39,711 nt of DNA from a virus (IMGVR_UViG_2531839665_000019:1-39711); one strand, 5' to 3'. Counted from the first letter of the stretch, positions 1 through 37,667 are shown. The notes: a model not told the origin generated them from the letters alone. Translations and numbers: made by a program.

Positions 1-579
1 CTAATTACTGCTGGTCGCCATCGCTCGGATTGAGCGTAAATCATCCAGGTTGCTCAACCTCTCTTTCATCTCCCGCTGACGTTGATAAATCTCGTCGTTG
101 CGATCGACCTGCGCCTGCGCCATTGCTGCTGCCAGTTCTTCCAGTTCCGGCATCGACAGTTTCACCTGTTGATTATCGGCGTCACCCCACGCCATAACGT
201 CCCGCGCCGTGTCAGATTTCGCAGCCATTACCACAGGATAAAGACGGGCCATTGAGTCGGGGCCAGCATTCCAGGTACGACCGTTCCATTCGAACGTGAA
301 CGGCAGTGCTTCCTGTTCTGTTCGCCACGCCTCGATTTCCCGTTTTTTGGCATCTTTTGCCGCTGCGATAAGTTCCGGCGTGACGGTGAACGGGGCGATT
401 TCGCCCCATTTGCCGCTCTGCAACTCTTCCCAGATGCGCTGGCCTGTCGGTGCGGTATCGTCCTGCATGGCGGTATACGGGACGAATTCCCTTTCACCTT
501 CAAATAACACCTCGCAGTCAACCGCACCATTTTCAAGGTAATGCGCGTTTCTGATGCCTTTTACCGCTCTGATTTTCAT
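1..579 (-). CDS. tail fibre assembly/chaperone protein (second fibre module)
   Basis: 192 aa ORF directly downstream of the 628 aa fibre gene; ATG at 579 with GGGGA SD; stop at 1-3. Family assignment by position and size only. Confidence 0.55.
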   Translation of the reverse strand: MKIRAVKGIRNAHYLENGAVDCEVLFEGEREFVPYTAMQDDTAPTGQRIWEELQSGKWGEIAPFTVTPELIAAAKDAKKREIEAWRTEQEALPFTFEWNGRTWNAGPDSMARLYPVVMAAKSDTARDVMAWGDADNQQVKLSMPELEELAAAMAQAQVDRNDEIYQRQREMKERLSNLDDLRSIRAMATSSN

Positions 580-592
580 GTTTTATTCCCCG

Positions 593-2479
593 TTACTCGA
601 TGCGCACAAACAGGCAGATACGACCGCTTGTTCCGTAAGAGTCCCTGACCCCGGATAGCGCCATATAACGCCCCGGAAAAGTGTACCCTGTTGCTCCTGC
701 ACTTGGTGTTGAACCGTAAGAGCCAGGCCCAGCAGAAGATATTGTGCACGAAAGATTAACTCCGCCCAGTTGTGACCCCTGCACCACATCACCCAGGCCA
801 ATTTTGATTTCTTTATCCCCGGAAGTTGTTCCGCGATAAACGGCCAGCACCGGAACACCAATTCCCGGATACTGAAAATAAGCGCCACTTCCCGACATGG
901 TCGAAAGATGCTCACTTAACATGTTTGACGTCAGAGACAGATTTATGACTGAAGTCAGCCCCCACGTCACCTCCCCGTCAGCATATGCAGAGCTGTACTG
1001 TGCATAAAAAACAGACTGGTCAGAATTTGGCTGATATCTGCTGTAAAAAAATAATCCTTTGTCAGTTTTTGCTGGATTACCGGTACTCATCCCGGACGGA
1101 AAAAGCTTCACATCGACAATACCTATAAAACAATCGAGGTCTGGAAAAATTTTTGAATTGTACGAATAAATAAAATAACAACCCTCCGTGACGTTTTTTA
1201 CCCACTCAAGGAATTTTTCATCGGAATTAAAATCAAGGCGCTCAGATTGTCTGAACGCATAACCAAAACCAAAGGCACCAGGCAGTGCCAGCCTGCCCGG
1301 TGTGCGGTCGCGGATATCGCTCTGGGGTTCCATCGTCGCAGCCGCTTTCAGTTCAAGCTCCGTGCGCATGGCTTCAGGTGTGTCCAGTGCCAGTAATGCG
1401 CGGGCTTTTTCTGACAGCTGCGCCAGTAAAATCCGGCCCTCTGCACTGAAATAAGGCAGTGTGTTTTCTTCCGGTGTTATCTGGCTGACAGCCGTTAACA
1501 CGTCATTAAGCGGCTGTTTACCTGCCAGTGCTTTAGTGACCGTTGTCGCAAAGTTCGGGTCATGGCCCAGCGCCGCTGCCAGCTCATTCAGCGTGTCCAG
1601 GGCTTCCGGTGACGAGCCAACCAGCGCAGCAAGCAGTTTGCGGACAAACGCCGCGTTCGCCATCTCCAGCCCGGTCGCATCGTCCGGTGGTGTTGGTGTG
1701 GTTGGCGTACCTGTGAACGCCGGGCTGTCCAGCGGCGCTTTTGTTTTCGTCTCGTCCATGACGGTTTTGACAGCCATTGGTGTGGCAGCCAGTTCTTCGC
1801 TGTCGTTGTCTGTATCACTACAGAGTTGCACCAGACCTTTTTCTGTTGTGGAAGCATTGCTTCCCTTCAGGTCATCAACTATCCGTTGCGCCTCGTCCCT
1901 GTGCTGTTTCGCTTCCTGCGCATTGCCTGCGCTCGCATCCTGACTGGCTTTAGCCTGTCGGGCATATTCGGCAGCGTTATTTTCGCGGCCCAGTGCAACA
2001 TTTGCCGATTGCTCAGCACTGGTCGCCGCTGAAGATGCAGCATTCCGATGGAGACGGGCATTTTTGGCTGCATTAATGGCTTCACTCCTTGCAGTGTCTG
2101 ATGCCTGCTCGCTTTCCGCTGCCGCTTCCGCGCTCTGCTGTGCCTGTTGCGCCAGTTCCTCAAAGCGTTTCACTACATCTGGCTTTAAATCGCTTTCATC
2201 AAGGGCAGTCAGAAAGTCGTTCAGCGTGCCGGGCTTTGAATCGTCGTAAACCGAAATGTCACCCACGCAGCACTTAGGGCCGTTCTTTTGCTTGATGTGT
2301 ACGGTGTATTTGCCTTTTGGTGCTTCAAAGGCATACTGTCCCGCTACATCGGTTTCAATAACCGCAAATGATTCTGTGACCACTTCACTGGTATTAACCA
2401 GTGCATCTAAATAAATTTTGCATTCCGCCATCGGAACGCCAGCGCCATTAATCAGCGCCCCTGAAATTAATACAGACAT
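593..2479 (-). CDS. tail fibre protein (628 aa, prophage tail-fibre N-terminal type)
   Basis: N-terminal region and Ala/Gln-rich coiled segment typical of enterobacterial side tail fibres; contains KGLVQL...AATP..AVK motif; ATG at 2479 with GAGG SD. Confidence 0.8.
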   Translation of the reverse strand: MSVLISGALINGAGVPMAECKIYLDALVNTSEVVTESFAVIETDVAGQYAFEAPKGKYTVHIKQKNGPKCCVGDISVYDDSKPGTLNDFLTALDESDLKPDVVKRFEELAQQAQQSAEAAAESEQASDTARSEAINAAKNARLHRNAASSAATSAEQSANVALGRENNAAEYARQAKASQDASAGNAQEAKQHRDEAQRIVDDLKGSNASTTEKGLVQLCSDTDNDSEELAATPMAVKTVMDETKTKAPLDSPAFTGTPTTPTPPDDATGLEMANAAFVRKLLAALVGSSPEALDTLNELAAALGHDPNFATTVTKALAGKQPLNDVLTAVSQITPEENTLPYFSAEGRILLAQLSEKARALLALDTPEAMRTELELKAAATMEPQSDIRDRTPGRLALPGAFGFGYAFRQSERLDFNSDEKFLEWVKNVTEGCYFIYSYNSKIFPDLDCFIGIVDVKLFPSGMSTGNPAKTDKGLFFYSRYQPNSDQSVFYAQYSSAYADGEVTWGLTSVINLSLTSNMLSEHLSTMSGSGAYFQYPGIGVPVLAVYRGTTSGDKEIKIGLGDVVQGSQLGGVNLSCTISSAGPGSYGSTPSAGATGYTFPGRYMALSGVRDSYGTSGRICLFVRIE

Positions 2480-2493
2480 AGAGCCTCTGAATG

Positions 2494-2516
2494 ATAAAAA
2501 GCCGCCTGCTGGCGGC
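2494..2516 (-). terminator. putative intrinsic terminator between the two fibre modules
   Basis: Minus strand reads GCCGCC-AGCA-GGCGGC hairpin followed by TTTTTAT, lying between the Tfa stop (2525) and the next fibre start (2479). Confidence 0.45.
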
Positions 2517-2524
2517 TGTGGAAT

Positions 2525-3100
2525 TTATTCAAAGTCTGACCAGTCGATATCTGGTGCATTTTCCGGTTGAATACGATTTAACTTTATTCGTAATTTTCTG
2601 AGGGCTGTCAGTTGCTCCTGTTCCTCTGGTGTTGCTTCACCAAAATCAACAGCATCCTGTAAGATTGCGATTTGTTCTCCAGTCTGTTTCAGCAGGCTGG
2701 TTTTCTTTTCTGCCGCCTGATTAATCAGCGCATCACGCTTCGCCTCTTCATCCGTCACCCACTGACTGCCATCCCAGCGCTGGTATTCTCCGTCTGGTGC
2801 AATAAATGTGACATTTTCAGGAAGTTCCCCCAGTTCAGATATCGGGACTGCATTTCCGGTTTCTGTTGAATAAACCGTTTCCCCCCGATGGTCTTCAACC
2901 AGACGCCATGAATTGTCAGCAGTATCAAACATTGCTGTAAAACCTTCGGGGATTTCCGGCGGTACAATATCCGTACAGTTTGCGGGTAATCCGGTATGAG
3001 GCGGTATATAAGCGTCACCACTGCCGATAAATTCTTTTGTATCTTCAAGAAAATTAAATACACGAATGGTCCGTGCTTTATCGCTCATTTTAAAAGTCAT
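2525..3100 (-). CDS. tail fibre assembly protein (lambda Tfa-like)
   Basis: 191 aa; N-terminus FIGSGDAYIPPHTGLPANCTD and overall pattern match lambda-type Tfa chaperones. Confidence 0.8.
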   Translation of the reverse strand: MTFKMSDKARTIRVFNFLEDTKEFIGSGDAYIPPHTGLPANCTDIVPPEIPEGFTAMFDTADNSWRLVEDHRGETVYSTETGNAVPISELGELPENVTFIAPDGEYQRWDGSQWVTDEEAKRDALINQAAEKKTSLLKQTGEQIAILQDAVDFGEATPEEQEQLTALRKLRIKLNRIQPENAPDIDWSDFE

Positions 3101-4134
3101 TATGCAAGCCTCACAATATAGTTAAATGCGATGTTTTTGACGGTGTTTTCCGTATTGCCCGCAGCGTTAACGGTGATGGTGTGTCCGTGTGGACCAATAG
3201 CAACGGAGTGTGCATGTGCACCAATTGGAACGGCGTGCGCATGGTTACCTGTAGTGTTTGTGACACCAGACCAGGTTCTGGAAGCGTTAAAGTTTACAGG
3301 AACACCATAAGTAAAATTAGAACCCGTAAATCCATGGGCTGCCGCAGAGCCACCCAGTGTAAATGCTCCACTTGCTGTATAGAAATTACCGCTATCACTT
3401 CTGAAGTAACCGAGAGTACCGGTAATTTCCATAGTGCCTCGGTTGTGGTTATGGTCACCAGTGGCATTTGAAGACTTAGTACCATAATCAAACGACGACG
3501 TGGTTTTCGTCCCCAAATCCGTACTGGATGCACTGGCACTGTGGGCGTGTGATTTAATGCCGTCCTGCTCCTGAGACAATACAGCACGACCACTGGCAGG
3601 CTTACCCTTGATTGTCCAGCCCCGCATATCCGGGATAATCCCGGATGGGTAGACAGCTGCAAGTTTAGGGTAAGAGCCTTTATCAAAGCTCTGCCCCTGC
3701 ATTAAGGCATAGCCGGGTGGCACTGAATCAGACGGCCACGGTATTGGGGTACCTACCGGTAAAGCCACTCCCTGCAATTCTGTTATTTTTTCCGCCAGTG
3801 ATTTTACTGCCTTTGGTGTGGCTGCTTCCGTTTCTGAATCACTGTCTGTTGCGCTACTGAGCTGAACGATGCCTTTCTTCGTTAATGATGCGTCAGGAAC
3901 TTTTTCCCCGACATATTGCGATATAGCATCAATCAGTTGATTTTGTTTCTTCGGGTCCGGTGATATATCAGCCGCACGGAGCACATTAATAAGTTCCTGT
4001 TGCAGGTCTCGAATGGCTCCCTGCTGATTATTCATGTGTTCAGCATAAACAATAGTGCCCTCAATGCCCTGAGTGGGGTCACCATCGTGAAACAATTGAT
4101 CCGGCGTATTCACCGGAGGCATTAAATTCTGCAT
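3100..4134 (-). CDS. tail fibre protein with tail-collar-like C-terminal domain (344 aa)
   Basis: [25 protein letters not shown] motif, [11 protein letters not shown]...PDMRGW collar-like segment, His/Gly-rich C-terminus; start overlaps upstream stop (TAATG). Confidence 0.75.
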
Positions 4135-4706
4135 TACTGCTTATCCTCATACGTGAAATAACAGTCTGTAAAAGCCGGTTTAAGGTCTTTAAAGGTATTT
4201 TCTAAAATGGATTCACCAAAGGCCGTCAGCGGCTCACCTGTTGCAGATGCGCCCGTTCTGAAACGGTATACCGGCGTTTTTGCACCAATAACATTGACCT
4301 GCCATACCCAGCGCATTTCAGGGATAAACAGACGGTCACCGCAACGATTTACCCCGGTGCGAAAGGCTCGTGGTTCGGTTATCGTTATGGTGTATCCCAG
4401 GCTTGCGGCCAGATTTTTAAAATAGGGAATGGACAGCCCGCCCGTTGCCGCCATTTTTACCAGGATGTTCTGCCGCCGCTCCTGTTGGGTTGCCCCTTCA
4501 CGGGGGACAACACCGTACACGCGCTCCCAGTCGGACAGCGTCATCGATGCCTGCAACGGGGTGATTTGTGCCAGAACGCGCGCTGCTGAGGCCTTCACGG
4601 CCTCCATGACGTTAGCCTCGGCTGTCAGCTCCGCGGAAATATATTTCCCGTTCAGGTCATAACTGACCGGCGGCAGCATGGCGCGAAATAAATCGACCAT
4701 ATTCAT
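4134..4706 (-). CDS. tail protein, Mu gp48-like (P2 gpI-like)
   Basis: 190 aa ORF in the conserved baseplate block after the J-like gene; assignment by synteny. Confidence 0.55.
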
Positions 4707-4709
4707 GAA

Positions 4710-5789
4710 TCACCCCTCACGCGGAAAAGGCTGAATATCAATATTTCCGGGGCGCAACCATTCCCACGTTGACGCATTAATCACGGCTTTTACATTCCCG
4801 TCAGGCGTGATTATTTTTCTGTCACTCACACCGGAAATGAGTGAAATCTGGGTTTCCAGTTGTGAAATAATTAATTCCTGCCCCGGCTCCAGTCGGTTCA
4901 TAAAATCCGTGACAACGTCAGTTATCTGCGGTTTTATCTGCTCAACGGTCAGGCCGCTGGTTTTTACCCGGACAACGAAATCAACGGCTTTTTTCGTCGG
5001 AGCCAGTACCATCGTGTCCTTCGCTGTAACCGGGCGGACTTCCTCAATATGTGCCAGCACGGCATTGATCAGTTCCTGCGAGGGGAGGTCATTGGCTGAC
5101 GTAATGGCCACATCAACAGTACCTTTCCCTCTGCGCAATGGCTCCACATATGCAGACGTAACGCCATCCACCTCCAGCGCCCAGCGTTTGTAATCATATT
5201 TATTACCGCCAGCGGGCGGCCTGCGCAGAATATCCAGATAACGCGCCAGCAGGTCAGCGTCGCTTTCCCTGTCCGTTCCGCCGGTCAGGGATTTAATCGT
5301 CACCGTGCTGTTGATGCCTTCCGGCGGACTGACCAGCGTTGCCGTCTGCGTCGCGGATGCGTTCGTCTGTGCCCCCGTAGCGGTGCTTTTTACCGTCACC
5401 TCTGCGCTGCCTTCATCACCGATGGTGCAGTCTGCTGTGGTGGCCACGCTGACACCTTCACCACGAATTTCCGCACCGGCTGGCAGCGTCTTACCGGGTG
5501 TGCCGGTAATCACCACCGGACCGGATGAGGCCGTTGCTTTTTTACGAAAAACATTGCGCGTGCGGCAGTGTAGCTCCAGATATTCAGGGTCTGCCGTGTC
5601 AGGAAACACCTGACGGAGGATCCATCCCTGATGCATAAAAAGCCCCTCCGCCACGCCGGATACAGCATTTGCACGAATGCGGTAGTCGCTGTCAGCGCCA
5701 GTATCTATGGTTTCTCCCGGCAGAGCGTTAGCGATATCACGTAGCTGGCGTTCTGTGTTTTCAGCAACGCCCGGAACAGGAAACGGCAT
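4710..5789 (-). CDS. baseplate J-like protein (Mu gp47-like)
   Basis: 359 aa; size and position in the V-W-J baseplate block. Confidence 0.7.
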   Translation of the reverse strand: MPFPVPGVAENTERQLRDIANALPGETIDTGADSDYRIRANAVSGVAEGLFMHQGWILRQVFPDTADPEYLELHCRTRNVFRKKATASSGPVVITGTPGKTLPAGAEIRGEGVSVATTADCTIGDEGSAEVTVKSTATGAQTNASATQTATLVSPPEGINSTVTIKSLTGGTDRESDADLLARYLDILRRPPAGGNKYDYKRWALEVDGVTSAYVEPLRRGKGTVDVAITSANDLPSQELINAVLAHIEEVRPVTAKDTMVLAPTKKAVDFVVRVKTSGLTVEQIKPQITDVVTDFMNRLEPGQELIISQLETQISLISGVSDRKIITPDGNVKAVINASTWEWLRPGNIDIQPFPREG

Positions 5790-6139
5790 TACATAATCCT
5801 CACAGGGTGTTCAAACGTCTGCGGTGTGCCCGCGTTATCCGTGACGGTGATTAACAGCAACAGCCAGCCGCGCTGGCCCGCTTTCGTGTCAACGGTAATG
5901 GATTTTGCCCGCCCGTCATCAAGCAGGGGCTGAAGTGCCTGGCTGGCATACTGCGCCGCCAGCCTGTGAACACGGGAAACGTCTTTTTCCCGCTTCAGTT
6001 CGTGCAGGCGTGACCCCAGCGACGCATCCGCCCAGTAACTGCCAAGCGGTGTCGCCAGTCGCAGATAAACCGCGTTATGGAGTGTATAAATCCGGCGGCG
6101 TTCGTAGTCGCCGGTTGCAGATGAAATCGTCTGGTCCAT
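5789..6139 (-). CDS. baseplate protein, Mu gp46-like (GPW/gp25-like)
   Basis: 116 aa ORF between V-like and J-like genes; synteny. Confidence 0.55.
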   Translation of the reverse strand: MDQTISSATGDYERRRIYTLHNAVYLRLATPLGSYWADASLGSRLHELKREKDVSRVHRLAAQYASQALQPLLDDGRAKSITVDTKAGQRGWLLLLITVTDNAGTPQTFEHPVRIM

Positions 6140-6192
6140 GCCGCCAGTCTGGCAGCATGGGCAGGTCAGAATCAGGTGAGGGTGTTCAGCAC

Positions 6193-6846
6193 TTAATTAA
6201 CCGGCGTGTCAGACATGCCGTGTGGGGTCGGGTGTTTGTGCGTTCCGATTTTAACGCCATTAATGGTGACGTCAACGGAGGTAATCACACCACCCACATG
6301 GTTGATGTTGCCTTCAAAGGTGGCGGCGTATTTCTTGCCCCCACTGATGGCCATGCCACCGTTGCCGGTGATTTTACCTTCCACCGTCAGCTTATCGCTG
6401 GCCGTCAGTAACGGTGTCGTGAATGCGGCGTTCTCCTCTGCCTCAACCTCATAGCGTTTGCATTTCACCCGGTAAACGTCACATTCGGTTTCAACAATCC
6501 GCCCGCGCTTCAGTACGATTTTCGCGCCTTCGTCGGTATACAGGGCCACCTCGCCGGGTTTCAGTTCCGTCAGGCGATATGCGCCGTGCTCTGTGGCCAC
6601 GACGACGGTATGGGAGGTATTACCGTTCAGCGGAACGGCAATACCCATTGAGCCGGGCGGCGGGGATGTGGTGAGGCCGTAATGCTGGAAATACTCCGCA
6701 CCGTCCAGCTGTTCGCCTGCCAGCCCGTTCAGCTGAAGTAGCTGTACTTTGGTAGAACTGTCTACCGTACCGGTCACCACCCTGAATGCCTGGCGAACGG
6801 CGGCCAGTGCCTGCTGTATGCGCTGATTAACCTTGTCCCACATCAT
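6193..6846 (-). CDS. baseplate assembly protein V / spike (Mu gp45-like)
   Basis: 217 aa; position after the P-like gene; beta-rich Gly-rich C-terminus. Confidence 0.65.
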   Translation of the reverse strand: MMWDKVNQRIQQALAAVRQAFRVVTGTVDSSTKVQLLQLNGLAGEQLDGAEYFQHYGLTTSPPPGSMGIAVPLNGNTSHTVVVATEHGAYRLTELKPGEVALYTDEGAKIVLKRGRIVETECDVYRVKCKRYEVEAEENAAFTTPLLTASDKLTVEGKITGNGGMAISGGKKYAATFEGNINHVGGVITSVDVTINGVKIGTHKHPTPHGMSDTPVN

Positions 6847-8054
6847 TTCTCCCAGACCTTAACAATGGCGACCTCTTTTTTCTTTTTGCCCCTGCGGTGA
6901 TGGCGTTTCTTCTCGCGCGGGAAGGCATCAGGTATCCACACGCCATCCTCCTTAAAGCGGAGCCGGGTTGTCTGCCCGCTCCGGCCTCCGCTGAACTCAC
7001 GCCCCATCAGAAAAAAGATGGCATCGATGCCGTGGGGTTCGCTGACAATCCGCACACGCTGGCCGGGCTGCCACAGGACACCGTCCGCCGTGCGATGGCC
7101 TGCAACCAGTGCGACGATATCCAGCCCCGACAGGCGGGCATCACTCATCATTTTTTTGGCGCGCCAGTTCACCTGCTCCATGTTGCTGGTGTCGCCCTGG
7201 GTGATTATCTGCGGGCGGTAATAATCCACGGTGGGGTCGGTGGCCACGGCTTTCATGTTATGAATGCCTGTCTGACCACTGCCTGTATTACCGCTGTCCT
7301 GCCCGGATAATGTGCGCACGCTGCCGTCCTCGTTCCAGATATCCAGCGGCACCACGGCCACCTGTTTCTTGCTGTCTGCGCGGCGGGCGTGGCTCTGGGC
7401 CAGCACCGTCAGCTCGGAGAAACAGCCGTTAATGGACCGGGTATCGTCCAGCTCCATCACGTTGTTCCCGGTGCCGTCCAGCTTCATAATCAGTGTATCC
7501 ACCGGCGTGGTGGTGTAGTCAGGGCCACCCACAACCAGCGTCCCGTCAGGCTCAAACCACGGCCATAAGCCGCGACCGGCGGCAGCTTTAGCCAGTGCAT
7601 CCCACGCACGCATCCCCGGCTCTATAACGACCTTGTCATTACGTGACACACCGGACGCCTGAATACGGATGCGCTGTATCCCCAGCGGTCTGACAATCCT
7701 GTCGATGACCTCGTCCAGCGTCAGCTGATTGGCGCTGAACACCGGCGCGGCACAGTCCACCAGAATGGCGGCATCATCACGCCCGGACAGGGTCAGCGTG
7801 CAGCTCTGACGGGATACACTGCGGCGCACGCTGTCCACGCGCCCACTGAGCACCGTCTCGTCTCCCACCTGCAAACGGACCGGCGCACCCCGGACGATAT
7901 CCGCCGGGAACACCTTTTCAGGCAGTCCCAGCTGAAGCTGCCAGCCGTCGGCGGCTTTCAGGAAATCGCTGTCAATACGATAACTGCTCCAGTCAGAATG
8001 CGACCTTCCGGCAATGACCAGGCTGATTTTGTCGTCGTTATTTTGCATAGGCAT
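6843..8054 (-). CDS. tail/baseplate protein, Mu P-like (gp44)
   Basis: 403 aa ORF following the N-like gene; start uncertain (overlaps upstream stop). Confidence 0.65.
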   Translation of the reverse strand: MPMQNNDDKISLVIAGRSHSDWSSYRIDSDFLKAADGWQLQLGLPEKVFPADIVRGAPVRLQVGDETVLSGRVDSVRRSVSRQSCTLTLSGRDDAAILVDCAAPVFSANQLTLDEVIDRIVRPLGIQRIRIQASGVSRNDKVVIEPGMRAWDALAKAAAGRGLWPWFEPDGTLVVGGPDYTTTPVDTLIMKLDGTGNNVMELDDTRSINGCFSELTVLAQSHARRADSKKQVAVVPLDIWNEDGSVRTLSGQDSGNTGSGQTGIHNMKAVATDPTVDYYRPQIITQGDTSNMEQVNWRAKKMMSDARLSGLDIVALVAGHRTADGVLWQPGQRVRIVSEPHGIDAIFFLMGREFSGGRSGQTTRLRFKEDGVWIPDAFPREKKRHHRRGKKKKEVAIVKVWEK

Positions 8055-27688: not shown

Positions 27689-27693
27689 AATGA

Positions 27694-28020: not shown

Positions 28021-28024
28021 CTTT

Positions 28025-28210: not shown

Positions 28211-28251
28211 CAGGTTGTTACTCCGTGATTCAGAAAATTTCATGCCGGGAC

Positions 28252-28665: not shown

Positions 28666-28843
28666 CTGGTACCTCCTTTACATACCGTGATTTTTCCAGC
28701 GGTTTTGGGCTGCGCTTCTGTTTCGCCAGACACCGTAAAAACGAATAGAGGACCACTCTCTAAAACCAAGATATCTATAGCGAACAACAAGCCGATTTGA
28801 GATACGGATAAGCTGCCAGGGTTTTGCTGTCAGCAGTCTTGCT

Positions 28844-29495: not shown

Positions 29496-29497
29496 CG

Positions 29498-30208
29498 TTA
29501 CACCCTCCCCAGTGCCAGCGTTTTGTTGCTCTGACCATTAACCCCCTGATGCAGTCTGGCGTTTTTCCCGGCGATAAAACCGGCAGTAGCGGCAAACTCT
29601 GCACCCCGGCACGCTTTAGCCGTACGCATATCCCCGTCGCGCAGGCCTTTAGTGCTGTGCAGGTTCTTTCTGTAAAGCTCAAGGCGGCTTTTTTCTTCCG
29701 GGGAGACGTCATACACCGCAATGACATCACGGGCACCAAAGACCCAGCCTTCGCAGAACTGGTCGCCACGGGCTACCCGCGTGGACGGACCGCAACGTTT
29801 GCAGTGTTTATCCTGATATTTTTTACGTTCAGCCATCATCTGACGGGAAAGCACATCAAACGCGTATGCCGCAATTTCCGGGCGGCTGTCAGGACCATAA
29901 AAACGAACGTAACGTTTGAGTGAACCAGAAGCCCGGTATTCGCCGGATATGTAACACTCGACACCGAAGGCTTTACAGACCAGGTCACACAGGATGTGCA
30001 TATAACGCGGCGGTGTACTGGCATCACTCGGCGCACCCGCGCTGGCAGCTTCCTGAATGTCGAACAATTCCGCGTCGTTTTCGCTGATGCCATGCTGGCG
30101 CATATAAGCCTGGGCTTTTGCAATAGCGTTAGCGGCTTCTTCCGGGCTTGATGTTCCTCTGGCAAGGCGTAACAGTTTTTTGATTTTGGCAATGTATTTA
30201 TCTTTCAT
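29498..30208 (-). CDS. DUF2786-like phage protein with Cys cluster
   Basis: 236 aa; N-terminus KIKKLLRLARGTSSPEEAANAIAKAQAYM resembles DUF2786; Cys cluster CKRCG...FCEGW suggests metal binding. Confidence 0.55.
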   Translation of the reverse strand: MKDKYIAKIKKLLRLARGTSSPEEAANAIAKAQAYMRQHGISENDAELFDIQEAASAGAPSDASTPPRYMHILCDLVCKAFGVECYISGEYRASGSLKRYVRFYGPDSRPEIAAYAFDVLSRQMMAERKKYQDKHCKRCGPSTRVARGDQFCEGWVFGARDVIAVYDVSPEEKSRLELYRKNLHSTKGLRDGDMRTAKACRGAEFAATAGFIAGKNARLHQGVNGQSNKTLALGRV

Positions 30209-30221
30209 GGTCGTCTGAACC

Positions 30222-30404
30222 TCAGCATCCTGAATTCTGAATTACGCAACTTCCGGCACGGCCTTCAGGAACGTGGGGAGTTCGTTCTGGCTGCGGTACT
30301 GAATGAACATCTGCTGTCGATTGAGAACTGGTCGCAAGACGATTAAAACAAACGATTGTCAGATTAATTTCGCGGGCGAACTTTTTTTGCTTAGCGATAT
30401 TCAT
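30222..30404 (-). CDS. small hypothetical protein
   Basis: 60 aa ORF; ATG 30404 preceded by a conserved hairpin element and GAGAGAG. Confidence 0.3.
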   Translation of the reverse strand: MNIAKQKKFAREINLTIVCFNRLATSSQSTADVHSVPQPERTPHVPEGRAGSCVIQNSGC

Positions 30405-30420
30405 AAATAAACTCTCTCTG

Positions 30421-30455
30421 ATTCAGGCGTAAGCCAGCCCCGGCGGGTTTACGCC
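30421..30455. repeat. conserved intergenic hairpin element, copy A
   Basis: ATTCAGGCGTAAGCCAGCCCCGGCGGGTTTACGCC; about 14-bp imperfect stem; followed on plus strand by AT-rich AATTAAAAAC. Confidence 0.55.
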
Positions 30456-30484
30456 ATATACAAATAAAATTAAAAACAGACTTA

Positions 30485-31030
30485 TTAACTACGACGTTCA
30501 GTTTTCCGGTAATGGCGGTCAACAGATTTAACGAACGCCTTCACATCACGGGAAATCGAATCCAGCGGATAATATTTATCCAGCAGTTCCATTCCGCTGA
30601 ATCGAATCTGAAAAAAATCAGGCTTATCTTTATATGACTCCATCAGGTCAATAAACCGCAGCTGACGCGGGAGGGATTCCTGCACGCCTGAAATAGTGAG
30701 CAAATCATCTTCAAGGATATATGCGAGGTCTTCCATATCCTTACAGTCAGACATCATGGATATTCTTGTCAGTATGTTCCGTGTGGCGATATACAGCGCG
30801 GCTGTGTCATTCGCCATCATGGCGAACAAATCCCCCTGAATATAAGCCCCCTTACTGGCCATAGCATTCCCGGCAATCTGCGCATCAAGTACCACATACA
30901 TAAAATCGCCAGGTGCACCCAGATGGCCCAGCAATGATGACGCCCATAACGTTACATTGGTTAACTTCCCAGATGAACGGACAGCAAAACCTTCAGGAGT
31001 AACAATAAATTCCCAGACTTTATCTTTCAT
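30485..31030 (-). CDS. hypothetical protein (low-GC cassette)
   Basis: 181 aa from ATG 31030; flanked by hairpin elements; lower GC than phage backbone. Confidence 0.5.
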   Translation of the reverse strand: MKDKVWEFIVTPEGFAVRSSGKLTNVTLWASSLLGHLGAPGDFMYVVLDAQIAGNAMASKGAYIQGDLFAMMANDTAALYIATRNILTRISMMSDCKDMEDLAYILEDDLLTISGVQESLPRQLRFIDLMESYKDKPDFFQIRFSGMELLDKYYPLDSISRDVKAFVKSVDRHYRKTERRS

Positions 31031-31045
31031 ATACAAATCCCCTTA

Positions 31046-31074
31046 ATTCAGGCGCAGACCTGTTTACCTGCGCC
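31046..31074. repeat. conserved intergenic hairpin element, copy B (divergent stem)
   Basis: ATTCAGGCGCAGACCTGTTTACCTGCGCC; same ATTCAGGCG...CGCC flanks as copies A and C; followed by A-run and GTTAAAAATCG. Confidence 0.45.
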
Positions 31075-31094
31075 ATAAAAAAACGAAGTCAGAG

Positions 31095-31487
31095 TTAAAA
31101 ATCGAAGACGTCAGTTAATTCCCGCTTCAGTGAAACGCACTCAGAATAAAAGCCCTCGCTCTCACCGCACCATCTGACGACTACACAGCCTTTTGATGTG
31201 CCGAACTTAAAGAAACTCCATGTCTGATGACCTTCCCCAACATCACATTCTTCGGTAACCACTTCAGCCTCTGTCAGCGGTTCATCTTTCAGGTCGTCAA
31301 GGTCTCCGACGATGTCCTCAATCCAGACTTTTTCGCAGCCTTCCTGAAAGTGGAAAAATGTAAACACGGTTCCCCATACTCCCCGGGAATAATCACCACG
31401 AAAAACAAGTTCATCGTTTTCATTCTTAACTACTTCTTTAAATGTACGCCCGAGCATTTCATTGATAACGGTAACACTCATTTTCAT
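31095..31487 (-). CDS. acidic hypothetical protein (low-GC cassette)
   Basis: 130 aa, Asp/Glu-rich; ATG 31487 preceded by hairpin copy C and GGAGAAATG. Confidence 0.5.
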   Translation of the reverse strand: MKMSVTVINEMLGRTFKEVVKNENDELVFRGDYSRGVWGTVFTFFHFQEGCEKVWIEDIVGDLDDLKDEPLTEAEVVTEECDVGEGHQTWSFFKFGTSKGCVVVRWCGESEGFYSECVSLKRELTDVFDF

Positions 31488-31495
31488 TTCTCCAG

Positions 31496-31530
31496 ATTCA
31501 GGCGTAAGTCAGCCCCGGCTGGTTTACGCC
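31496..31530. repeat. conserved intergenic hairpin element, copy C
   Basis: ATTCAGGCGTAAGTCAGCCCCGGCTGGTTTACGCC; differs from copy A at two stem positions, partly compensatory. Confidence 0.55.
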
Positions 31531-31561
31531 TGTTTTAAATAACAATTAAAAACAAATTAAA

Positions 31562-31753
31562 TTAATGCGGTGCTTTCAGTGTTTCGACTTTTACGAAATA
31601 AGGCTCGACATTAATTTCAACCACACAACCACATTTAAAATCTCTGGCAGGTGAAACGGTTTTCACCACACGACCACCACGCAACGCCGGATGTGCAGTG
31701 TGCATGAAGCGAGTCCCTACCGGATACTGCTTATTAAAGTTCTTCGCATTCAT
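31562..31753 (-). CDS. small hypothetical protein
   Basis: 63 aa ORF in early operon. Confidence 0.4.
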   Translation of the reverse strand: MNAKNFNKQYPVGTRFMHTAHPALRGGRVVKTVSPARDFKCGCVVEINVEPYFVKVETLKAPH

Positions 31754-31967
31754 GGCGTGGCCTCCAGCCCTTCAGGTGAGCGTTAGCGCAGAACTCCGCA
31801 CGATGTTCAGCCCAGATGCGGCGCAGGGTGCTACACGGGCTTTGTGCTGCCTTACGCCACAGCTTTTCAGCCTCGGCATAATCACCGCGCTGTTCAGCTC
31901 TTGACGCTCCCAGTGAATACGCCGCGCAACGGTTCCCGGCTCTGTACTCTTTGATATCCTGATGCAT
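31734..31967 (-). CDS. small helical protein, possibly ANR-family-like regulator
   Basis: 77 aa from ATG 31967 (AGGGG SD, coupled to upstream stop); GDYAEAEKLWRKAAQSP resembles my recollection of the ANR (Aar-like) signature. Confidence 0.4.
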   Translation of the reverse strand: MHQDIKEYRAGNRCAAYSLGASRAEQRGDYAEAEKLWRKAAQSPCSTLRRIWAEHRAEFCANAHLKGWRPRHECEEL

Positions 31968-31968
31968 G

Positions 31969-32613
31969 TTAAACCCCTGCAATATCAAGCGGGATTGCGC
32001 GATATTCGTCAGAATCGCCGACGCGCTCATACACACGAATATAGCTCTTGCTGCCAATCACCTGGACGGCTTCACCAATCAGCGTCATTGCGTTATTCCA
32101 GCGTTCGTCCTCAATTTCAAGGCGACGCAAGGCCAGAACGCGCCCGGTGTTAATGTTGCCTTCCTTGTCCGTGCTGAATGCCTCGCTGATGATGGCTTTG
32201 ATTTCAGGGCGTGCACCTTCCGTCCAGTCAGCCAGGCAATCATCAATCAGCGACTTCGCGGTCTGAATGCGTTCATCAAACGCGATACGGTCCTGCATGG
32301 CGCGCTGAATCTTGTAACGCCCGTCAAAGCTGTAAAGCGTGATATTCCCTTTTTTGCCGCCTTTCACAGCACCGTATTTCTCCGCCGACAGGTCAATAAA
32401 TGCCTGGATATCACCAAACGCACGCAGTTTCAGTTCACGCAGTGAGGCGGAGGCAGCAATCACCATCTCCACAAGCTCACCGACCAGCTGCTCACGGTCG
32501 CGGTCAATATCTTTGATAAGGCTTTCAGGTGTCATTACGCCACGGGCATCCACCCAGTAACCTTCAGGCGCTTGAGTTTTCGTGTATTGCTTAACTTTAT
32601 TTTCAGTCGTCAT
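31969..32613 (-). CDS. hypothetical phage early protein (possibly DUF3164-like)
   Basis: 214 aa ORF; family assignment is weak recall only. Confidence 0.5.
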   Translation of the reverse strand: MTTENKVKQYTKTQAPEGYWVDARGVMTPESLIKDIDRDREQLVGELVEMVIAASASLRELKLRAFGDIQAFIDLSAEKYGAVKGGKKGNITLYSFDGRYKIQRAMQDRIAFDERIQTAKSLIDDCLADWTEGARPEIKAIISEAFSTDKEGNINTGRVLALRRLEIEDERWNNAMTLIGEAVQVIGSKSYIRVYERVGDSDEYRAIPLDIAGV

Positions 32614-32642
32614 AATTAAATTACCTCAGTGATATTTACAGA

Positions 32643-32858
32643 TTAATGTGTGTTATGTGCGCAGGGTTCCACGCCAACAGAAAATAAATCAACGCCGTTA
32701 AATTCTTTATTAAGAGTTTGATTCATTACCTCCCATAACCGTTGTCTTACACCGACCTCTTCATCCGTAAATCCTTTTTTATCAATAGCCCCCATACTCC
32801 TGACACGAAGCGTGCCGTTTTCATCGGTGTAGATAATTACTTCTAACTTGACCGCCAT
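32643..32858 (-). CDS. small hypothetical protein
   Basis: 71 aa ORF downstream of B. Confidence 0.4.
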   Translation of the reverse strand: MAVKLEVIIYTDENGTLRVRSMGAIDKKGFTDEEVGVRQRLWEVMNQTLNKEFNGVDLFSVGVEPCAHNTH

Positions 32859-32870
32859 TCTGATTTCCTC

Positions 32871-33110
32871 TTATTGCCATACGACGGTGCAGCCGTCGAT
32901 ACAGGACGTTTTCACCACGCGGCGCAGGCCGCTGAATGTCTGGACGATTTCCGTTACCGGCCATACAGGACCACCCACGGGCGGGCAGGCATAAACCACA
33001 GGTAAACGGTGATGCTGTCCCGTTACACGACCGCCGGTGGTGTGAATGGCCACACGGGCACGGGAACGGACGGCGTTAATGGTCTGCTTGTCCATCGTCT
33101 TATTCTCCAT
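32871..33110 (-). CDS. small hypothetical protein (kil-position gene)
   Basis: 79 aa ORF immediately downstream of MuB-like gene; no sequence support for function. Confidence 0.35.
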   Translation of the reverse strand: MENKTMDKQTINAVRSRARVAIHTTGGRVTGQHHRLPVVYACPPVGGPVWPVTEIVQTFSGLRRVVKTSCIDGCTVVWQ

Positions 33111-34003
33111 CAGTGAATTAACATTTCTGCGAATTTATCAATGGCCTGCACACTGACCGGCGCATCGCTGATATCACAAATCCGGTACACACCACGCGCC
33201 AGTTTGAACAGGCGGCGGGCATTACCCAGCGAACGTGTATAAAGCGCCTCGCTGATTTCCGGTTCTGCTGCTTCCGGCATCAGCCCGGTGGCTATCTGGT
33301 TAAAATCTTCCTGCGCCAGCGTATCGCCCAGGTTAAGCGCCAGCGCCACACGGCTGTATAACTGGGCGAACTCACCGCGACGTCCCTTGAGGTTAATCAG
33401 AAGGCGTGGCATACCCGCCAGGACAATCCCGATACCCGCTTTGTCATGCAGACGGCGCAGAACCTCCAGTGCGCGATAGGGGAGCAGTTCAGCCTCGTCC
33501 ACCATCAGCAGGCGACCGGAATCACGCAGTTCTCGCACACATGCATCAATCAGTTCGTGGATATTGCCGCGAACTTTTACCCCCAGCTGGCGGCACAGCT
33601 CCTCAAGCAGTGTTCTGGCTGTATAGCCCGGGTCGGCTTCAATCAGGACCGCATCCCGGTTTCTGGCGGCGTATTCACGCAGAATCATTGTTTTGCCAAG
33701 ACCTGCCGCGCCATACAGTACGCAGATTTCACATTCCAGGTGAGCATAGGCCAACACCTCCAGTCCTTTGGCAGCCATACCGGTGGCAACAAATTTCGCT
33801 TTAATACGGCGGCTGTTTTCCTTTTCCCGCTCACGGGTCACAAAGGCAGAAATGCGTTCTTCAATATCAGCCATATCGCCCTGATATTTACCCTGTAAAT
33901 ACTGGTTGATAACGGCGCTGCTACGACCAATAGCACGGGCGACGTGGGTTTGCGTATAGCCGCGACGGGTCATTACGTCATTTAATTGCGTAATTAAACT
34001 CAT
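33110..34003 (-). CDS. B: transposition ATPase MuB-like (AAA+)
   Basis: 297 aa; Walker A GAAGLGKT; N-terminal HTH-like region; immediately downstream of transposase. Confidence 0.85.
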   Translation of the reverse strand: MSLITQLNDVMTRRGYTQTHVARAIGRSSAVINQYLQGKYQGDMADIEERISAFVTREREKENSRRIKAKFVATGMAAKGLEVLAYAHLECEICVLYGAAGLGKTMILREYAARNRDAVLIEADPGYTARTLLEELCRQLGVKVRGNIHELIDACVRELRDSGRLLMVDEAELLPYRALEVLRRLHDKAGIGIVLAGMPRLLINLKGRRGEFAQLYSRVALALNLGDTLAQEDFNQIATGLMPEAAEPEISEALYTRSLGNARRLFKLARGVYRICDISDAPVSVQAIDKFAEMLIH

Positions 34004-34021
34004 AATTAAATACCTTTTAAA

Positions 34022-36064
34022 TTAACGGTTGTTTGTGCCGTTTTTCTTTAAATTGCGTTCGCGTTCAGATGCGAATAAATAAAGTTCTTCTTTTTCCTTT
34101 TTCTCCGGGCGTTCCAGTCCATATCCCAGATTAAAGTCAGGCTTCTGCGTAATGGCCGGGGTAAGCTCGCGTTTAGCCTCTTCGATTTTCTGCGTGGCCC
34201 GTGCAATGCGGCCCCTGACGCGTTTCTCCAGTTTTTGTTCGATAACTGGTTTAGCGAAGGCATCAACCTTGTTACCGTTCCAGATGGCATCGCAGATATA
34301 AGAGCCATCAGCCCGCCGGACAATGACGCTGTTTGCATCATGAATATCGTAACTGACCCTGACTTCATTCCCGTGCTCTGCGGCCAGATCATATGAGTAA
34401 TAAATATTGTTGAATAACTGAATTTCCCCGCGAAATGTTTTGCGCGTCACTTCCGGTCTGAACATTTCATGCAGTTCTTCCGGCGACAGGAAATCAATTT
34501 CAACATTCTGCTCTTTTATCAGTTTCCGGCGATACGCTGCCGGGCTGTAATATTCGCCATCCTCTTTGCGTGGTAGGCTGCTGTGTGGCCGGTTGTTATA
34601 GCGTCTGACCTCCAGCTCTATGGCTGCCATCAGTTGCTCAAAGGTAGGGATTTCATCCCTCGCCTTAACCTGCCGTTTTGTCAGCTCTTTCCCTTTGTGG
34701 GTGGCCTTAATGGCTGACTGCATAATCCGTTGCTGCATCATTACGGTTTCCTTGTCTGCATCCCTTGCGCAGTACGTCTGGAAACTCAGAGCCACGTCTT
34801 TGGGTATTCCTTTGTTTGCCCGTTCAATCACCCCGCGCCCCTGCGGGTTACCTGGTATCCCCGTGTGATGTTCCACACCCAGCCGGGGCAGAATCCCGGT
34901 AATATCGGCATCAAGCACCCGGTTTTTTTCACCGCCCCCGTTATCGGAGTAATAAATCAGCGGTATCCCGTGCTGCGCCATGCCGTAACGTAACGCATCA
35001 GCAACGGCTATCACGTTCTCCGACAGGGACAGTGACCAGCCCACAACAAAGCGTTGCCCAGCATCCATAACAAGCGTCACTTCTGGCCGGAAAATATTGC
35101 CGGTCAGGGGGTTAAACGCGGTCATTTTCATACAGTGACCATCCCCGACCCATACCGCATTAACTGGTAGCGATGTCCAGTCGCGCCGCACAAAGGGATT
35201 GAGCGAACGCCAGGCTGAACCGGTGGAGCGGAAACGCTCTTTAACAATCACCGGGACGCTGCTTAACACCCGTCTTACTGCGTGAACTGAAGGTAATGCT
35301 GCCAGCATTCCCGCATCATTCGCGTGCTTTTCATGCCACCAGGCTGAAAACTCTCGATACGCATATTCAACGGTCGGGCGCTTCCATGAGCGATAGAACA
35401 TAAAGAAATCGCTCAACCACCAGACCTGCTCCCACGGTGTTCCCTTATGATGACCGGGAGCCAGTAACGCCAGTAACTGATTGGCATCACCGCGCGCCAT
35501 CAGCCAGGCGGAATACCATTCCTGTAAACTCCCTGTACTGACGCCAGTTCGCTTACCCTGTCGGGCATTGGCGGTATTACCTGCCACAATAACACGCTCG
35601 GGCAAAGCCTCCTGGCGGATACCATCAACGATGTGTTTTATCGCCGCCGTCCTGGACATTCCTGCGTATTCACGCAGTTTATGCACTTCGGTAGCCAGCA
35701 ATATCCGCGCATCAGCGATGGCCTTTTGCTTGTCGGTCAGTGCCTGGACTTCGCGTAATGCCAGCTCCGGGCATTTGACCATCACCTCCAGTTCATCGCG
35801 GACGGTGACGTTTTTAACTGCCTTCTGCTCAACCACGGCGGGCAGTTGCGCATCTTCCAGAACCTGATGAGTCAGGCGCTTACGTAAAACTTTCTGCGCT
35901 TCAGTGGGCAGGCAGTCGATGTGATACTCGAATGCTTTGGTGCCTTCACGCTTGCGCTTCCATTCCGGGTGCGTCTCTGTGATCCGATTGAGCGTCCAGC
36001 GCACCCCCTGAACTGTACCGGGCAAACCAGGAAGACCGGCCAGCTCATTGGCTGAATAAAACAT
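34022..36064 (-). CDS. A: DDE transposase MuA-like
   Basis: 680 aa; N-terminus with LPGLPGT motif like MuA; catalytic-region motifs VWVGDGH and YYSDNGGGE; start coupled to ner stop. Confidence 0.9.
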   Translation of the reverse strand: MFYSANELAGLPGLPGTVQGVRWTLNRITETHPEWKRKREGTKAFEYHIDCLPTEAQKVLRKRLTHQVLEDAQLPAVVEQKAVKNVTVRDELEVMVKCPELALREVQALTDKQKAIADARILLATEVHKLREYAGMSRTAAIKHIVDGIRQEALPERVIVAGNTANARQGKRTGVSTGSLQEWYSAWLMARGDANQLLALLAPGHHKGTPWEQVWWLSDFFMFYRSWKRPTVEYAYREFSAWWHEKHANDAGMLAALPSVHAVRRVLSSVPVIVKERFRSTGSAWRSLNPFVRRDWTSLPVNAVWVGDGHCMKMTAFNPLTGNIFRPEVTLVMDAGQRFVVGWSLSLSENVIAVADALRYGMAQHGIPLIYYSDNGGGEKNRVLDADITGILPRLGVEHHTGIPGNPQGRGVIERANKGIPKDVALSFQTYCARDADKETVMMQQRIMQSAIKATHKGKELTKRQVKARDEIPTFEQLMAAIELEVRRYNNRPHSSLPRKEDGEYYSPAAYRRKLIKEQNVEIDFLSPEELHEMFRPEVTRKTFRGEIQLFNNIYYSYDLAAEHGNEVRVSYDIHDANSVIVRRADGSYICDAIWNGNKVDAFAKPVIEQKLEKRVRGRIARATQKIEEAKRELTPAITQKPDFNLGYGLERPEKKEKEELYLFASERERNLKKNGTNNR

Positions 36065-36300
36065 TACGCCGCCTTACTGGCATACCGGCTTGGCCAGATC
36101 TCCGCAGGTTCCACACCAATAGCATCGGCTATGATGCGTTCATATTTAGGGCATGAGCGATACAGTGCATTTTTTAAAGAGTCTTTTTTTAGACCAGCGC
36201 GTTCAGAAAGTTCACGCAATGTAAAACCTTTGGTGTGCACAGCGGCAACGATGTACTCGCGGTGCCAGTCTTTGTTCATTACTTCATTTCTAACCATCAT
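36064..36300 (-). CDS. ner: Ner-like DNA-binding regulator
   Basis: 78 aa from ATG 36300 (AAGGG SD); DWHREYIV...KNALYRSCPKYERIIADAIGVEPAEIWPSRY matches the Ner/Nlp pattern. Confidence 0.85.
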   Translation of the reverse strand: MMVRNEVMNKDWHREYIVAAVHTKGFTLRELSERAGLKKDSLKNALYRSCPKYERIIADAIGVEPAEIWPSRYASKAA

Positions 36301-36316
36301 TAGGTTACCCTTAAAA

Positions 36317-36359
36317 GTTATCCGTACGGATAACACCGCCGTGTTATCCCTTCGGATAC
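36317..36359. promoter_or_regulatory. two operator-like palindromes (GTTATCC-N4-GGATAAC) in the ner/repressor divergent control region
   Basis: Perfect palindrome GTTATCCGTACGGATAAC (36317-36334) and near-copy GTTATCCCTTCGGATAC (36343-36359), just upstream of ner. Confidence 0.5.
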
Positions 36360-36468
36360 AAGTATTGATCCATAAATAGAAAATTACAAGCTTTCTTTTC
36401 TTGATTTAGAGAAAAGAAAGTCTCTTTGTGGAGATTGGTTGAAAATCAATATGTTAGAAGGAAAGAAA

Positions 36469-37119
36469 ATGAGTAAACAAACCGCTGATGATTTTTCCTT
36501 TTCTCAGGATAGAAAAGAAAGCATTCAAGACAGAATCAAACAACTGATTGGCAGCAGGAGCCTGCGTAAAGCCACCTCAGACTGGGGATTACCGTACTCG
36601 ACCATAAATAACTACTTTGAAAAAGGCACCACACCTGGCCTAAATGTGGTCGCTACAATAGCAAAATTAGAGAATGTATCACTGGAATGGCTGGTCTATG
36701 GTGAGAACAAAAACATTCTAATGATAGAAAACACAAAGGTGGCTACAGAAGACGTTAACCGCCCCGATACAAGTATTGTTGACGAAATACTAAGACGAGC
36801 CGCTCCAGAAGATAGAGAGCGTCTTATTGATATGCTTTGTTGTATTGGTATCAAAGGAGTCCTGGAACGCTTACAACAACCCATCAGGCAAGCTACGCAG
36901 GCCGACAGCGACCAAGACGAACAGGAGAATGCCATCAGAAGCCTAAACATCAGGGAATCACTCAAAGACGTTATATGTATGGCTCTAGATGGTAATGAAG
37001 AAACCGACAAAGAGATTTTGCGACGCATCGAATCTCGTGCACGGGCTGGGTCGCCAGGTGGTCAGACCGCTGCCACGCCGGAACAAGAAACGAAGCCTGT
37101 AAGCAAAAAATCAGCATGA
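36469..37119 (+). CDS. phage repressor (CI-like HTH)
   Basis: Start taken at ATG 36469 (AGGA SD); HTH-like segment STINNYFEKGTTPGLNVVATIAKLENVSLEWLVYGE; divergent from ner/A/B as for the Mu c repressor. Confidence 0.7.
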   Translation: MSKQTADDFSFSQDRKESIQDRIKQLIGSRSLRKATSDWGLPYSTINNYFEKGTTPGLNVVATIAKLENVSLEWLVYGENKNILMIENTKVATEDVNRPDTSIVDEILRRAAPEDRERLIDMLCCIGIKGVLERLQQPIRQATQADSDQDEQENAIRSLNIRESLKDVICMALDGNEETDKEILRRIESRARAGSPGGQTAATPEQETKPVSKKSA

Positions 37120-37280
37120 ACGCCTACTGCCTGGTGGGCGCATGCTGCTAACTAATTAGCGACATCCACAACAAAACCAATACAGAAGACGGATAAGAAA
37201 GGGACAAATTAAGCAAGGTTAAAACGGGTTTTAAAATCTTTTAAAAGGCGATCGCTTTCCTGCACCACCAGATCAAAGTA

Positions 37281-37414
37281 GTCCAGAATAAAGCGTAAAA
37301 AAAGGCACTTTTGGTCATTTCTTTCAAAACGATCCAGAATCGGTGAAATCTCTCACATCCCGCACCACTCAAGGCTTGCAGGTTCGTCCAGGCTGCTCGG
37401 ACCCAGTCCAGAAT
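37281..37414. repeat. three copies of (G/A)TCCAGAAT near the prophage left end (candidate transposase-binding sites)
   Basis: GTCCAGAAT at 37281-37289, ATCCAGAAT at 37332-37340, GTCCAGAAT at 37406-37414, all in the same orientation within 135 bp. Confidence 0.4.
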
Positions 37415-37430
37415 TGATCACCACCCCACA

Positions 37431-37667
37431 AATACAGCGGTAGGTCTGGGGCTATACCCGGATTACGCAACGGCTGTTGATAAGATGGTTCGCGTGAAAG
37501 ATATCTTTATACCGATTGAGAGCAATGCCAAACGCTACGACGCGATGAATAAAGGCATTTTCAAAGACCTAACCAAACATACTGATGTGATCCTGAAAAA
37601 ATCGTATGAAGTGATGCATGGGGAATTGGGGAATGTGGATTCGATCCAGAGCTGGTCGAATGCGTAA
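37431..37667 (+). pseudogene. 3' fragment of host FGGY-family sugar kinase gene (ygcE-like), truncated by the prophage
   Basis: Open frame encodes ...NTAVGLGLYPDYATAVDKMVRVKDIFIP...SWSNA*, resembling FGGY kinase C-termini; upstream residues in the same frame are non-kinase-like; 5' boundary approximate. Confidence 0.45.

Follow-up and report, generated by a model that had tools for sequence, protein, structure and literature searches.

A Mu-like transposable prophage splits ygcE beside the CRISPR-II locus of Escherichia coli

Introduction

Phage Mu (Muvirus mu, NC_000929) is a transposable temperate myophage of about 37 kb that is bounded by TG...CA termini, carries three transposase-binding repeats at each end and inserts at random with a short duplication of its target. 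Its repressor gene is divergent from ner-A-B-kil, which is followed by a semi-essential region, GemA, Mor and the genes for lysis, packaging, head, tail and tail fibres. The same architecture, with putative binding repeats, is found in a prophage contained in IMGVR_UViG_2531839665_000019:1-39711, a stretch of 39,711 nucleotides (nt) that is called the window, in its whole length, in the following. The prophage splits the Escherichia coli gene ygcE, encoding an FGGY-family carbohydrate kinase, beside the CRISPR-II locus (CRISPR, short palindromic repeats that are clustered and regularly interspaced).

Judged on the transposase alone (tblastn), the closest described phages are Pseudomonas VW-6B (49% identity), Klebsiella ST405-OXA48phi1.1, Yersinia vB_YpM, Mannheimia 3927AP2 and Haemophilus SuMu. 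These Mu-like myophages from other hosts all measure 33–39 kb; their transposases are 40–49% identical over 92–99% of the length, and no similarity is seen at the nucleotide level. For transposable prophages, a paper of 2021 gives target duplications of 5 bp (Mu) and 6 bp (B3) only (PMC8705779). The CRISPR-II locus has been described as two arrays, CRISPR2.2 and CRISPR2.3, situated about 0.5 kb apart between ygcE and ygcF (queE), with the leader by CRISPR2.3; only sporadic insertion elements were reported in its flanks (PMC3903273). A literature search returned nothing relevant on the present insertion, on ygcE in connection with Mu-like elements or on the prophage JNE082796 discussed below. 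We consider it highly probable that an apparently intact Mu-like prophage entered ygcE by ordinary, near-random transposition and that the vicinity of CRISPR-II is incidental.

Results and Discussion

The boundary between phage and host was located by megablast. Window positions 37100-39711 were searched against 5,426 complete E. coli genomes, nearly all of which matched. Every top match starts at base 332 of this query, and E. coli homology thus begins at position 37431; the features under the matches are ygcE, CRISPR and queE. With positions 33000-37480 as query, Mu-type prophages were matched in 25 complete genomes at unrelated chromosomal sites, and these matches end at 37430-37435, the shortest at 37430. 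Since host homology opens at 37431 and the related prophages stop at 37430 at minimum, the boundary could be set between these two positions. The junction of the window was found in none of the 5,426 complete genomes.

Positions 37431-37667 (plus strand) are the 3' remnant of ygcE with its last 78 codons and the stop codon. They are identical in 237 of 237 nt to L001 3001-3237 of UTAK-6, where ygcE is intact (L001 1759-3237) and the match to the window begins at L001 3001. Synteny agrees with this identification: the order is yqcE-ygcE-CRISPR-II-queE, with queE (ygcF) complete at 39040-39711 (minus strand). The first-pass annotation of the window had proposed a Mu-like transposable prophage in a host kinase gene and had read this frame as the end of an FGGY kinase, with about 80 codons. 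The alignment to prophage-free E. coli that it recommended places the junction inside ygcE, and the proposal is borne out by this junction together with the MuA and MuB homologues and the termini described below.

The other phage end was read from a sister assembly, GCA_012861115.2, whose contig AATKJF020000002.1 carries both ends and was returned both when the transposase and when the last phage gene was looked up. Over 1-10579 and 24022-38396 this contig and the window are 100% identical, and the latter stretch takes in the junction and the ygcE remnant as well as CRISPR2.2 and the AT-rich region that follows it; the internal spacers of CRISPR2.3 are the only difference in the compared stretches. 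On the sister contig the phage runs 82 bp past window position 1 to an invariant terminus ...AAACGCGAAGTTACA (S-end ...GAAGTTACA). Past the S-end follows TATTAATCGCTGC... (TATTAATCGC...), which is the reverse complement of ygcE from nt 1246 down. This 5' part of ygcE comprises 1246 nt, 1245 of them identical to the reference, and yqcE and ygcW come next.

According to the contig record coordinates the full prophage measures 37,512 bp. This equals 37,430 + 82, so that window and sister contig are colinear. The two pieces of ygcE total 1479 + 4 nt, from which, as from the 5' part adjoining the other phage end, a simple insertion without deletion follows. The disruption of ygcE suspected in the first-pass annotation is thus confirmed, as is its assumption that the other end lies outside the window. 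All phage genes are inside, the last of them ending 82 bp from the terminus, and the outstanding part is the terminal 82 bp (attR). For the upstream ygcE fragment a truncated product of 416 residues is predicted, ending in ...GAAINM and a stop codon and devoid of the 76 C-terminal residues.

Both termini are of the TG...CA type. The attL (c-end) occupies 37120-37430, and its minus-strand terminus 5'-TGTGGGGTGGTGATCAATTCTGGAC is kept at 14 loci whose flanks are all different. Within attL three copies of ATTCTGGA(C/T) are found at 37280-37289, 37331-37340 and 37405-37414, which we regard as putative transposase-binding sites; counting both ends, ATTCTGGAC-type repeats occur as 3 + 3. The termini are symmetric, as both open with TG and both have TTCTGGAC at positions 18-25. 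TGTGGGG... is invariant at the 14 loci and ...GTTACA at 11 loci, again with different flanks throughout. Because the base outside TG varies among the 14 loci, the phage ends are well defined.

The uninterrupted target in ygcE reads GCGATT-AATA-CAGCGG. In the window the junction is ...CCCCACA/AATACAGCGG, in the sister assembly GCGATTAATA/TGTAAC.... From the intact target and the two junction reads, the duplication is therefore AATA, 4 bp long, with its right-hand copy at 37431-37434 (plus strand; ygcE nt 1243-1246). A duplication of 4 bp was found in six of six independent insertions of this lineage, in the five others with both ends on one record: CATA in STEC308, AGGT in GCA_013067765.1, CAGT in GCA_014103455.1, GATG in UMNF18 and CCCT in STEC316. 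The 5 bp expected in the first-pass annotation do not hold; shifting either terminus by one base fails at all six insertions. The length as such is not new: in GenBank entry LC727881, a related Mu-like prophage of E. coli already bears the annotation of a 4-bp "duplication due to insertion". Our result therefore corrects an expectation and is not a discovery.

On established Mu biology, the following course of events can be proposed. A temperate Mu-like transposable myophage would have infected an E. coli ancestor of the strain, the N-like protein closing its linear DNA into a non-covalent circle. The A/B transpososome would then have joined the 3'-OH ends of the phage to target phosphates 4 bp apart, at an essentially random target, nt 1243-1246 of the non-essential kinase gene ygcE. 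Gap repair would have produced the AATA duplication and left ygcE split into the 1246-nt 5' part and the 237-nt 3' remnant. The repressor would silence the divergent ner-A-B operon, probably via the control region with the palindrome described below, and induction would lead to replicative transposition, Mor-dependent late transcription and headful packaging. Thereafter the prophage would have been inherited vertically in a small clonal group.

As an alternative, the element could be a defective or rearranged remnant that lies next to a ygcE deletion. Truncated relatives are indeed known, one with repressor, ner and A only and another, in STEC308, with pseudogenes and without most or all of the head genes, and attR is absent from the window itself. 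Against this, 53 of the 55 genes mapped from relatives are intact open reading frames (ORFs) in the window and the tape-measure ORF is intact as well, leaving over a 51-residue gene in the chaperone region. The sister contig has both ends with a clean 4-bp duplication and ygcE parts without loss, and 37,512 bp is inside the range of 36–39 kb typical of transposable phages (PMC8705779). That the element was recently mobile is implied by the recurrence of identical proteins and of one and the same attR at 10 different sites. A remnant is hence improbable.

Some points nevertheless weigh against the simple insertion of an intact phage. The left junction lies outside the window and was read from the sister assembly, and this assembly is another isolate, since its CRISPR2.3 spacer content differs. 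We infer from the intact ORFs, and from copies at different sites that are nearly identical, that the prophage is active, and from the removal of the 76 C-terminal residues that YgcE has lost its function.

The layout of the adjoining locus matches the published CRISPR-II, with the difference that ygcE is interrupted by the 37.5-kb prophage. Downstream of the ygcE remnant a GC-rich hairpin, the ygcE terminator hairpin, precedes CRISPR2.2 (37713-37849, minus strand). This vestigial array consists of two type I-E repeats in degenerate form (37713-37741 and 37774-37802; 5–6 mismatches), one spacer and a partial third repeat. On its far side from the phage lies an AT-rich stretch of 455 bp with 28% GC (37851-38305). 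CRISPR2.3 (38306-38700, minus strand; type I-E), which corresponds to the RefSeq "CRISPR" annotation of the homologous stretch, has seven repeats and six spacers, with perfect or near-perfect 29-bp type 2 repeats, a periodicity of 61 bp, 32-bp spacers and a degenerate trailer repeat at 38306. It is followed by 339 bp with 30% GC (38701-39039, minus strand) that make up the AT-rich CRISPR2.3 leader and the upstream region of queE. The orientation of such an array can be taken from the canonical CRISPR RNA orientation of the type I-E repeat. Here that orientation corresponds to the minus strand, and the array has its degenerate terminal repeat at 38306, which places the leader on the queE side.

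Between the phage end and the first CRISPR2.2 repeat there are 282 bp, and the distance to the CRISPR2.3 leader is 1.27 kb. Relative to both arrays the phage end is downstream, on their trailer side and beyond the ygcE terminator hairpin. The first-pass annotation was correct on the distance of about 300 bp and on the E. coli CRISPR2-type arrays and queE downstream; its placement of the insertion right beside an AT-rich CRISPR leader applies loosely only, as the phage adjoins the trailer side of CRISPR2.2 and the leader is on the far, queE side.

Four of the six CRISPR2.3 spacers are also present in UTAK-6. The window has six spacers (38335-38671) and the sister assembly three (L013 7548-7759), of which the first and the last are common, while each array has private ones. 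The same insertion and flanks with different internal spacers imply that, once the phage had inserted, spacers inside the array were lost or recombined. Three strains agree in the leader-proximal spacer, so that no recent acquisition has taken place.

A comparison of the seven spacers of the two arrays with the prophage on both strands, allowing up to 10 mismatches, gave no match. BLAST of the array against the phage collection matched only records that themselves hold CRISPR repeats. In Pseudomonas Mu-like phages, an anti-CRISPR locus is located between G and the protease/scaffold genes; the corresponding gap between G and the protease gene here measures 155 bp and contains no ORF. A CRISPR-associated transposon was considered as well and dismissed, as tniQ, a Cas effector and a guide RNA are missing from the element, no spacer matches and the insertion sites are scattered.

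One could also suppose that the insertion was directed or selected, either by CRISPR-guided or leader-seeking transposition or by being kept for an altered CRISPR-II expression. The mere 282 bp between phage end and CRISPR2.2 would fit, and the internal CRISPR2.3 spacers that differ between two members with an identical insertion can be read as array instability. Internal spacer loss is, however, common in E. coli arrays without any prophage. Relatives of the prophage occupy more than 25 unrelated sites, and the junction itself is missing from all complete genomes searched. Cas genes, tniQ and a guide RNA were not found in the element, an Rfam search had no match and none of the spacers matches the phage. 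The phage is situated downstream of array transcription, on the trailer side, with the terminator hairpin between it and the arrays; this speaks against the idea as well, which we regard as very improbable. Given the many unrelated sites of the relatives and the lack of a spacer that matches the phage, the proximity to CRISPR-II looks coincidental, in line with an ordinary transposition into ygcE.

The gene map of the prophage (1-37430, minus strand, complete except for attR) was compiled from gene calls and precomputed Pfam hits on contigs with identical proteins, supplemented by Pfam and PHROG scans. Genes run from the c-end to the S-end, and the sole gene on the plus strand is the lysogeny repressor (36469-37119; 216 residues), which is transcribed divergently from the early operon. 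It is of a CI-type helix-turn-helix (HTH) family (PF07022, 25.7 bits at a cut-off of 22) and matches the transcriptional repressors of phrog_3037 with 1.4e-59. The intergenic region between repressor and ner (36301-36468; 168 bp, 34% GC) holds a 32-bp palindrome at 36390-36421 and is, by its position, the presumed operator and early-promoter region.

Three early proteins follow on the minus strand. The Ner-like regulator (36064-36300; 78 residues; Pfam HTH_35, 9e-26) is 43% identical to Mu Ner. The MuA-type DDE transposase (34022-36064; 680 residues) has HTH_Tnp_Mu_1 (42 bits) and Mu-transpos_C (61 bits) above the cut-off and a sub-threshold rve core in Pfam, with about 23% identity to MuA over 309 residues. 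Directly downstream of A lies the gene of a MuB-like AAA+ target-selection ATPase (33110-34003; 297 residues; Pfam AAA_22 and TniB), which is 32% identical to Mu B. The remaining early and middle region (26462-33095, minus strand) includes Kil (32871-33095), DUF3164 (31969-32613), GemA (27025-27438), Mor (26462-26929) and about 14 small accessory genes of unassigned function; PHROG families exist for all small proteins of the prophage. The "full Mu early module" of the first-pass annotation thus holds for function and order but not for the identity of the repressor, which is not homologous to Mu c.

In the accessory early region, 34 bp at 28839-28872 are 100% identical to many Shiga toxin (Stx)-converting phages (933W, VT2-Sakai and others), and about 190 bp around them match Escherichia phage HEMP4 with 92%. 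With ead/Ea22-like genes close by, this area has the look of a small mosaic joint. A PADLOC scan of ten early-region and accessory proteins gave no defence match besides the methyltransferase described below and a weak TnsC-like AAA+ match of the B protein (1.4e-6). Rfam at gathering thresholds returned no match, and tRNAs were not found.

The lysis cassette (24934-25974, minus strand) consists of two holins (25582-25974 and 25314-25592) and a Peptidase_M15_4 endolysin (24934-25311). This module is swapped within the lineage: the endolysin of the window has 125 residues, whereas close relatives (L015 20753-21298, L016 6117-6662) carry a 181-residue GH108 and PG_binding_3 endolysin in the same position with the same two holins. 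Between DUF1804 (24011-24511, minus strand) and the large terminase an orphan N6/N4 DNA methyltransferase of a type II-like kind is located (23224-23964, minus strand; 246 residues; PF01555, 2.4e-24; PADLOC MTase_II, 5e-65). It is kept in the relatives L016 and L017 and has no restriction partner nearby. By analogy with Mom in Mu it probably plays an anti-restriction role.

The structural module is colinear with Mu from portal to tail fibre, as the first-pass annotation had stated. The head module (14862-23222, all on the minus strand) has TerL (phrog_38; 21582-23222), portal (19983-21578), Mu F-like (18830-19996), G-like (18282-18833) and protease/scaffold I-like proteins (16957-18126), a structural protein (16561-16956), the major head T-like protein (15642-16550), a gene in gp35 position (15297-15638) and a gp36-like gene (14862-15293). 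The tail module (1-14808, minus strand, likewise in Mu order) includes gp37- and gp38-like genes, sheath (12590-14011), tube (12203-12577), a tail assembly chaperone between tube and tape measure, the tape measure (9387-11660), an N-like DNA-circularisation protein (8038-9387) and baseplate P with gp45-48 homologues (4134-8054). It closes with tail fibre 1 and its assembly protein (2525-4134), tail fibre 2 (593-2479) and a DUF4376 protein (1-579). Plus-strand ORFs such as 15066-16217, 18210-18992 and 23873-24502 overlap with minus-strand genes that have good support, and we took these ORFs to be spurious.

In 1-3763, the genes for tail fibres and their assembly show 80–86% nucleotide identity to side-tail-fibre genes of the lambdoid phages phiP27, Rac-SA53, mEp460 and PhiR42_1, and to an Actinobacillus phage. 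Since no other sizeable part of the prophage matches the phage collection at the nucleotide level, a horizontal exchange of host-range genes is suggested.

BLASTP against all Mu proteins detected homologues for 17 of the 55 prophage proteins, in strict Mu order and with 23–44% identity. TerL, the repressor, GemA and Mor were not detectable as homologues in this comparison, and homologues of Mu c, C, gin, com and mom as well as an invertible G segment were not found. Further differences to Mu are the orphan methyltransferase upstream of TerL, two tandem tail-fibre sets in place of a gin/G inversion, and a duplication of 4 bp compared to 5 bp in Mu. Mu c is a winged-helix repressor, in contrast to the CI-type HTH repressor of the prophage. 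In Mu, repressor and transposase share an N-terminal DNA-binding domain and compete for operator and enhancer; here the CI-type repressor is paired with a transposase that keeps the Mu-type N-terminal HTH_Tnp_Mu_1.

That the prophage is phage Mu itself or another member of the genus Muvirus (Mu, D108, SfMu), to which the common gene order and functional repertoire might point, has practically no probability in view of the low protein identities, the missing Mu genes and G segment, the 4-bp duplication, and megablast of both halves against INPHARED, where matches were found only in the tail-fibre genes and one early patch of about 190 bp, with at most 6% query coverage. Judged from its sequence, it is rather to be regarded as a genuine Mu-type transposable phage outside Muvirus.

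The nearest relatives are Mu-like prophages of E. coli genomes in RefSeq (STEC308, UMNF18, STEC316, GF75, E2348/69 and others). They belong to the same lineage, B-A-ner and attL being 90–97% identical in nucleotide sequence, and their PGAP annotations include Mu transposase, AAA ATPase, DUF3164, GemA and Mor. They have the same termini and the same 4-bp length of the duplication at different insertion sites, and mosaic differences in accessory early genes, immunity region, endolysin (GH108 compared to M15 peptidase) and tail fibres; the relative in E2348/69 diverges in the immunity region beyond query position 3380. More than 25 different flanks were seen, among them yjiL/yjiK, agaF/agaE, mhpT, ypdF, ycgB, yfcC, RHS and PAAR genes and other prophages. 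In the latter group L008 is inserted in a P2-like prophage, L012 in an unrelated tailed phage and L015/L007 and L021 in lambdoid prophages. GCA_047262035.1 has two copies in one genome.

Truncated copies occur as well. In L014 (SRR10254090 contig) repressor, ner and A are directly followed by host genes. The relative in STEC308 (L002 14268-15818) has an internal deletion that jumps from just downstream of Mor to the tape-measure/N region; most or all head genes are lost and pseudogenes are present, but both termini and the 4-bp duplication are kept.

Among annotated elements, Mu_JNE082796 (LC727881, LC727895), a Mu-like prophage in O157 Stx phages and the one for which the depositors annotate the 4-bp duplication, has a transposase with 44.7% identity. 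It differs in length (39,968 bp) and end sequences, and 19 of the 55 proteins are detectably similar at 25–53%. Exact copies of the proteins are widespread: 8,942 collection blocks are indexed for Ner, 171 for the portal and 55 for the transposase, where the Ner count may include related lineages that share the same protein. The lineage thus appears to be very common; among the sequenced phages of the INPHARED collection it has no close relative. It is possible, though on balance we would not yet assume it, that the prophage represents an undescribed genus-level lineage of E. coli transposable phages.

Conclusion

The event described here is an ordinary one, namely one more random Mu-type insertion that disrupts a dispensable gene. 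The particular insertion is new, and the kind of element is already known and annotated. For a small sublineage of E. coli, the insertion is a clean marker of clonality. Curators and programs that call prophage boundaries should expect duplications of 4 bp instead of 5 bp for this lineage and for the related E. coli Mu-like lineage. Mildly notable about the lineage are its abundance, the 4-bp duplication and the pairing of a CI-type repressor with a Mu-type transposase. It is a common lineage without a characterised isolate. If the lineage is inducible, it would permit a direct comparison of how transpososomes of the MuA family set the spacing of the target cuts.

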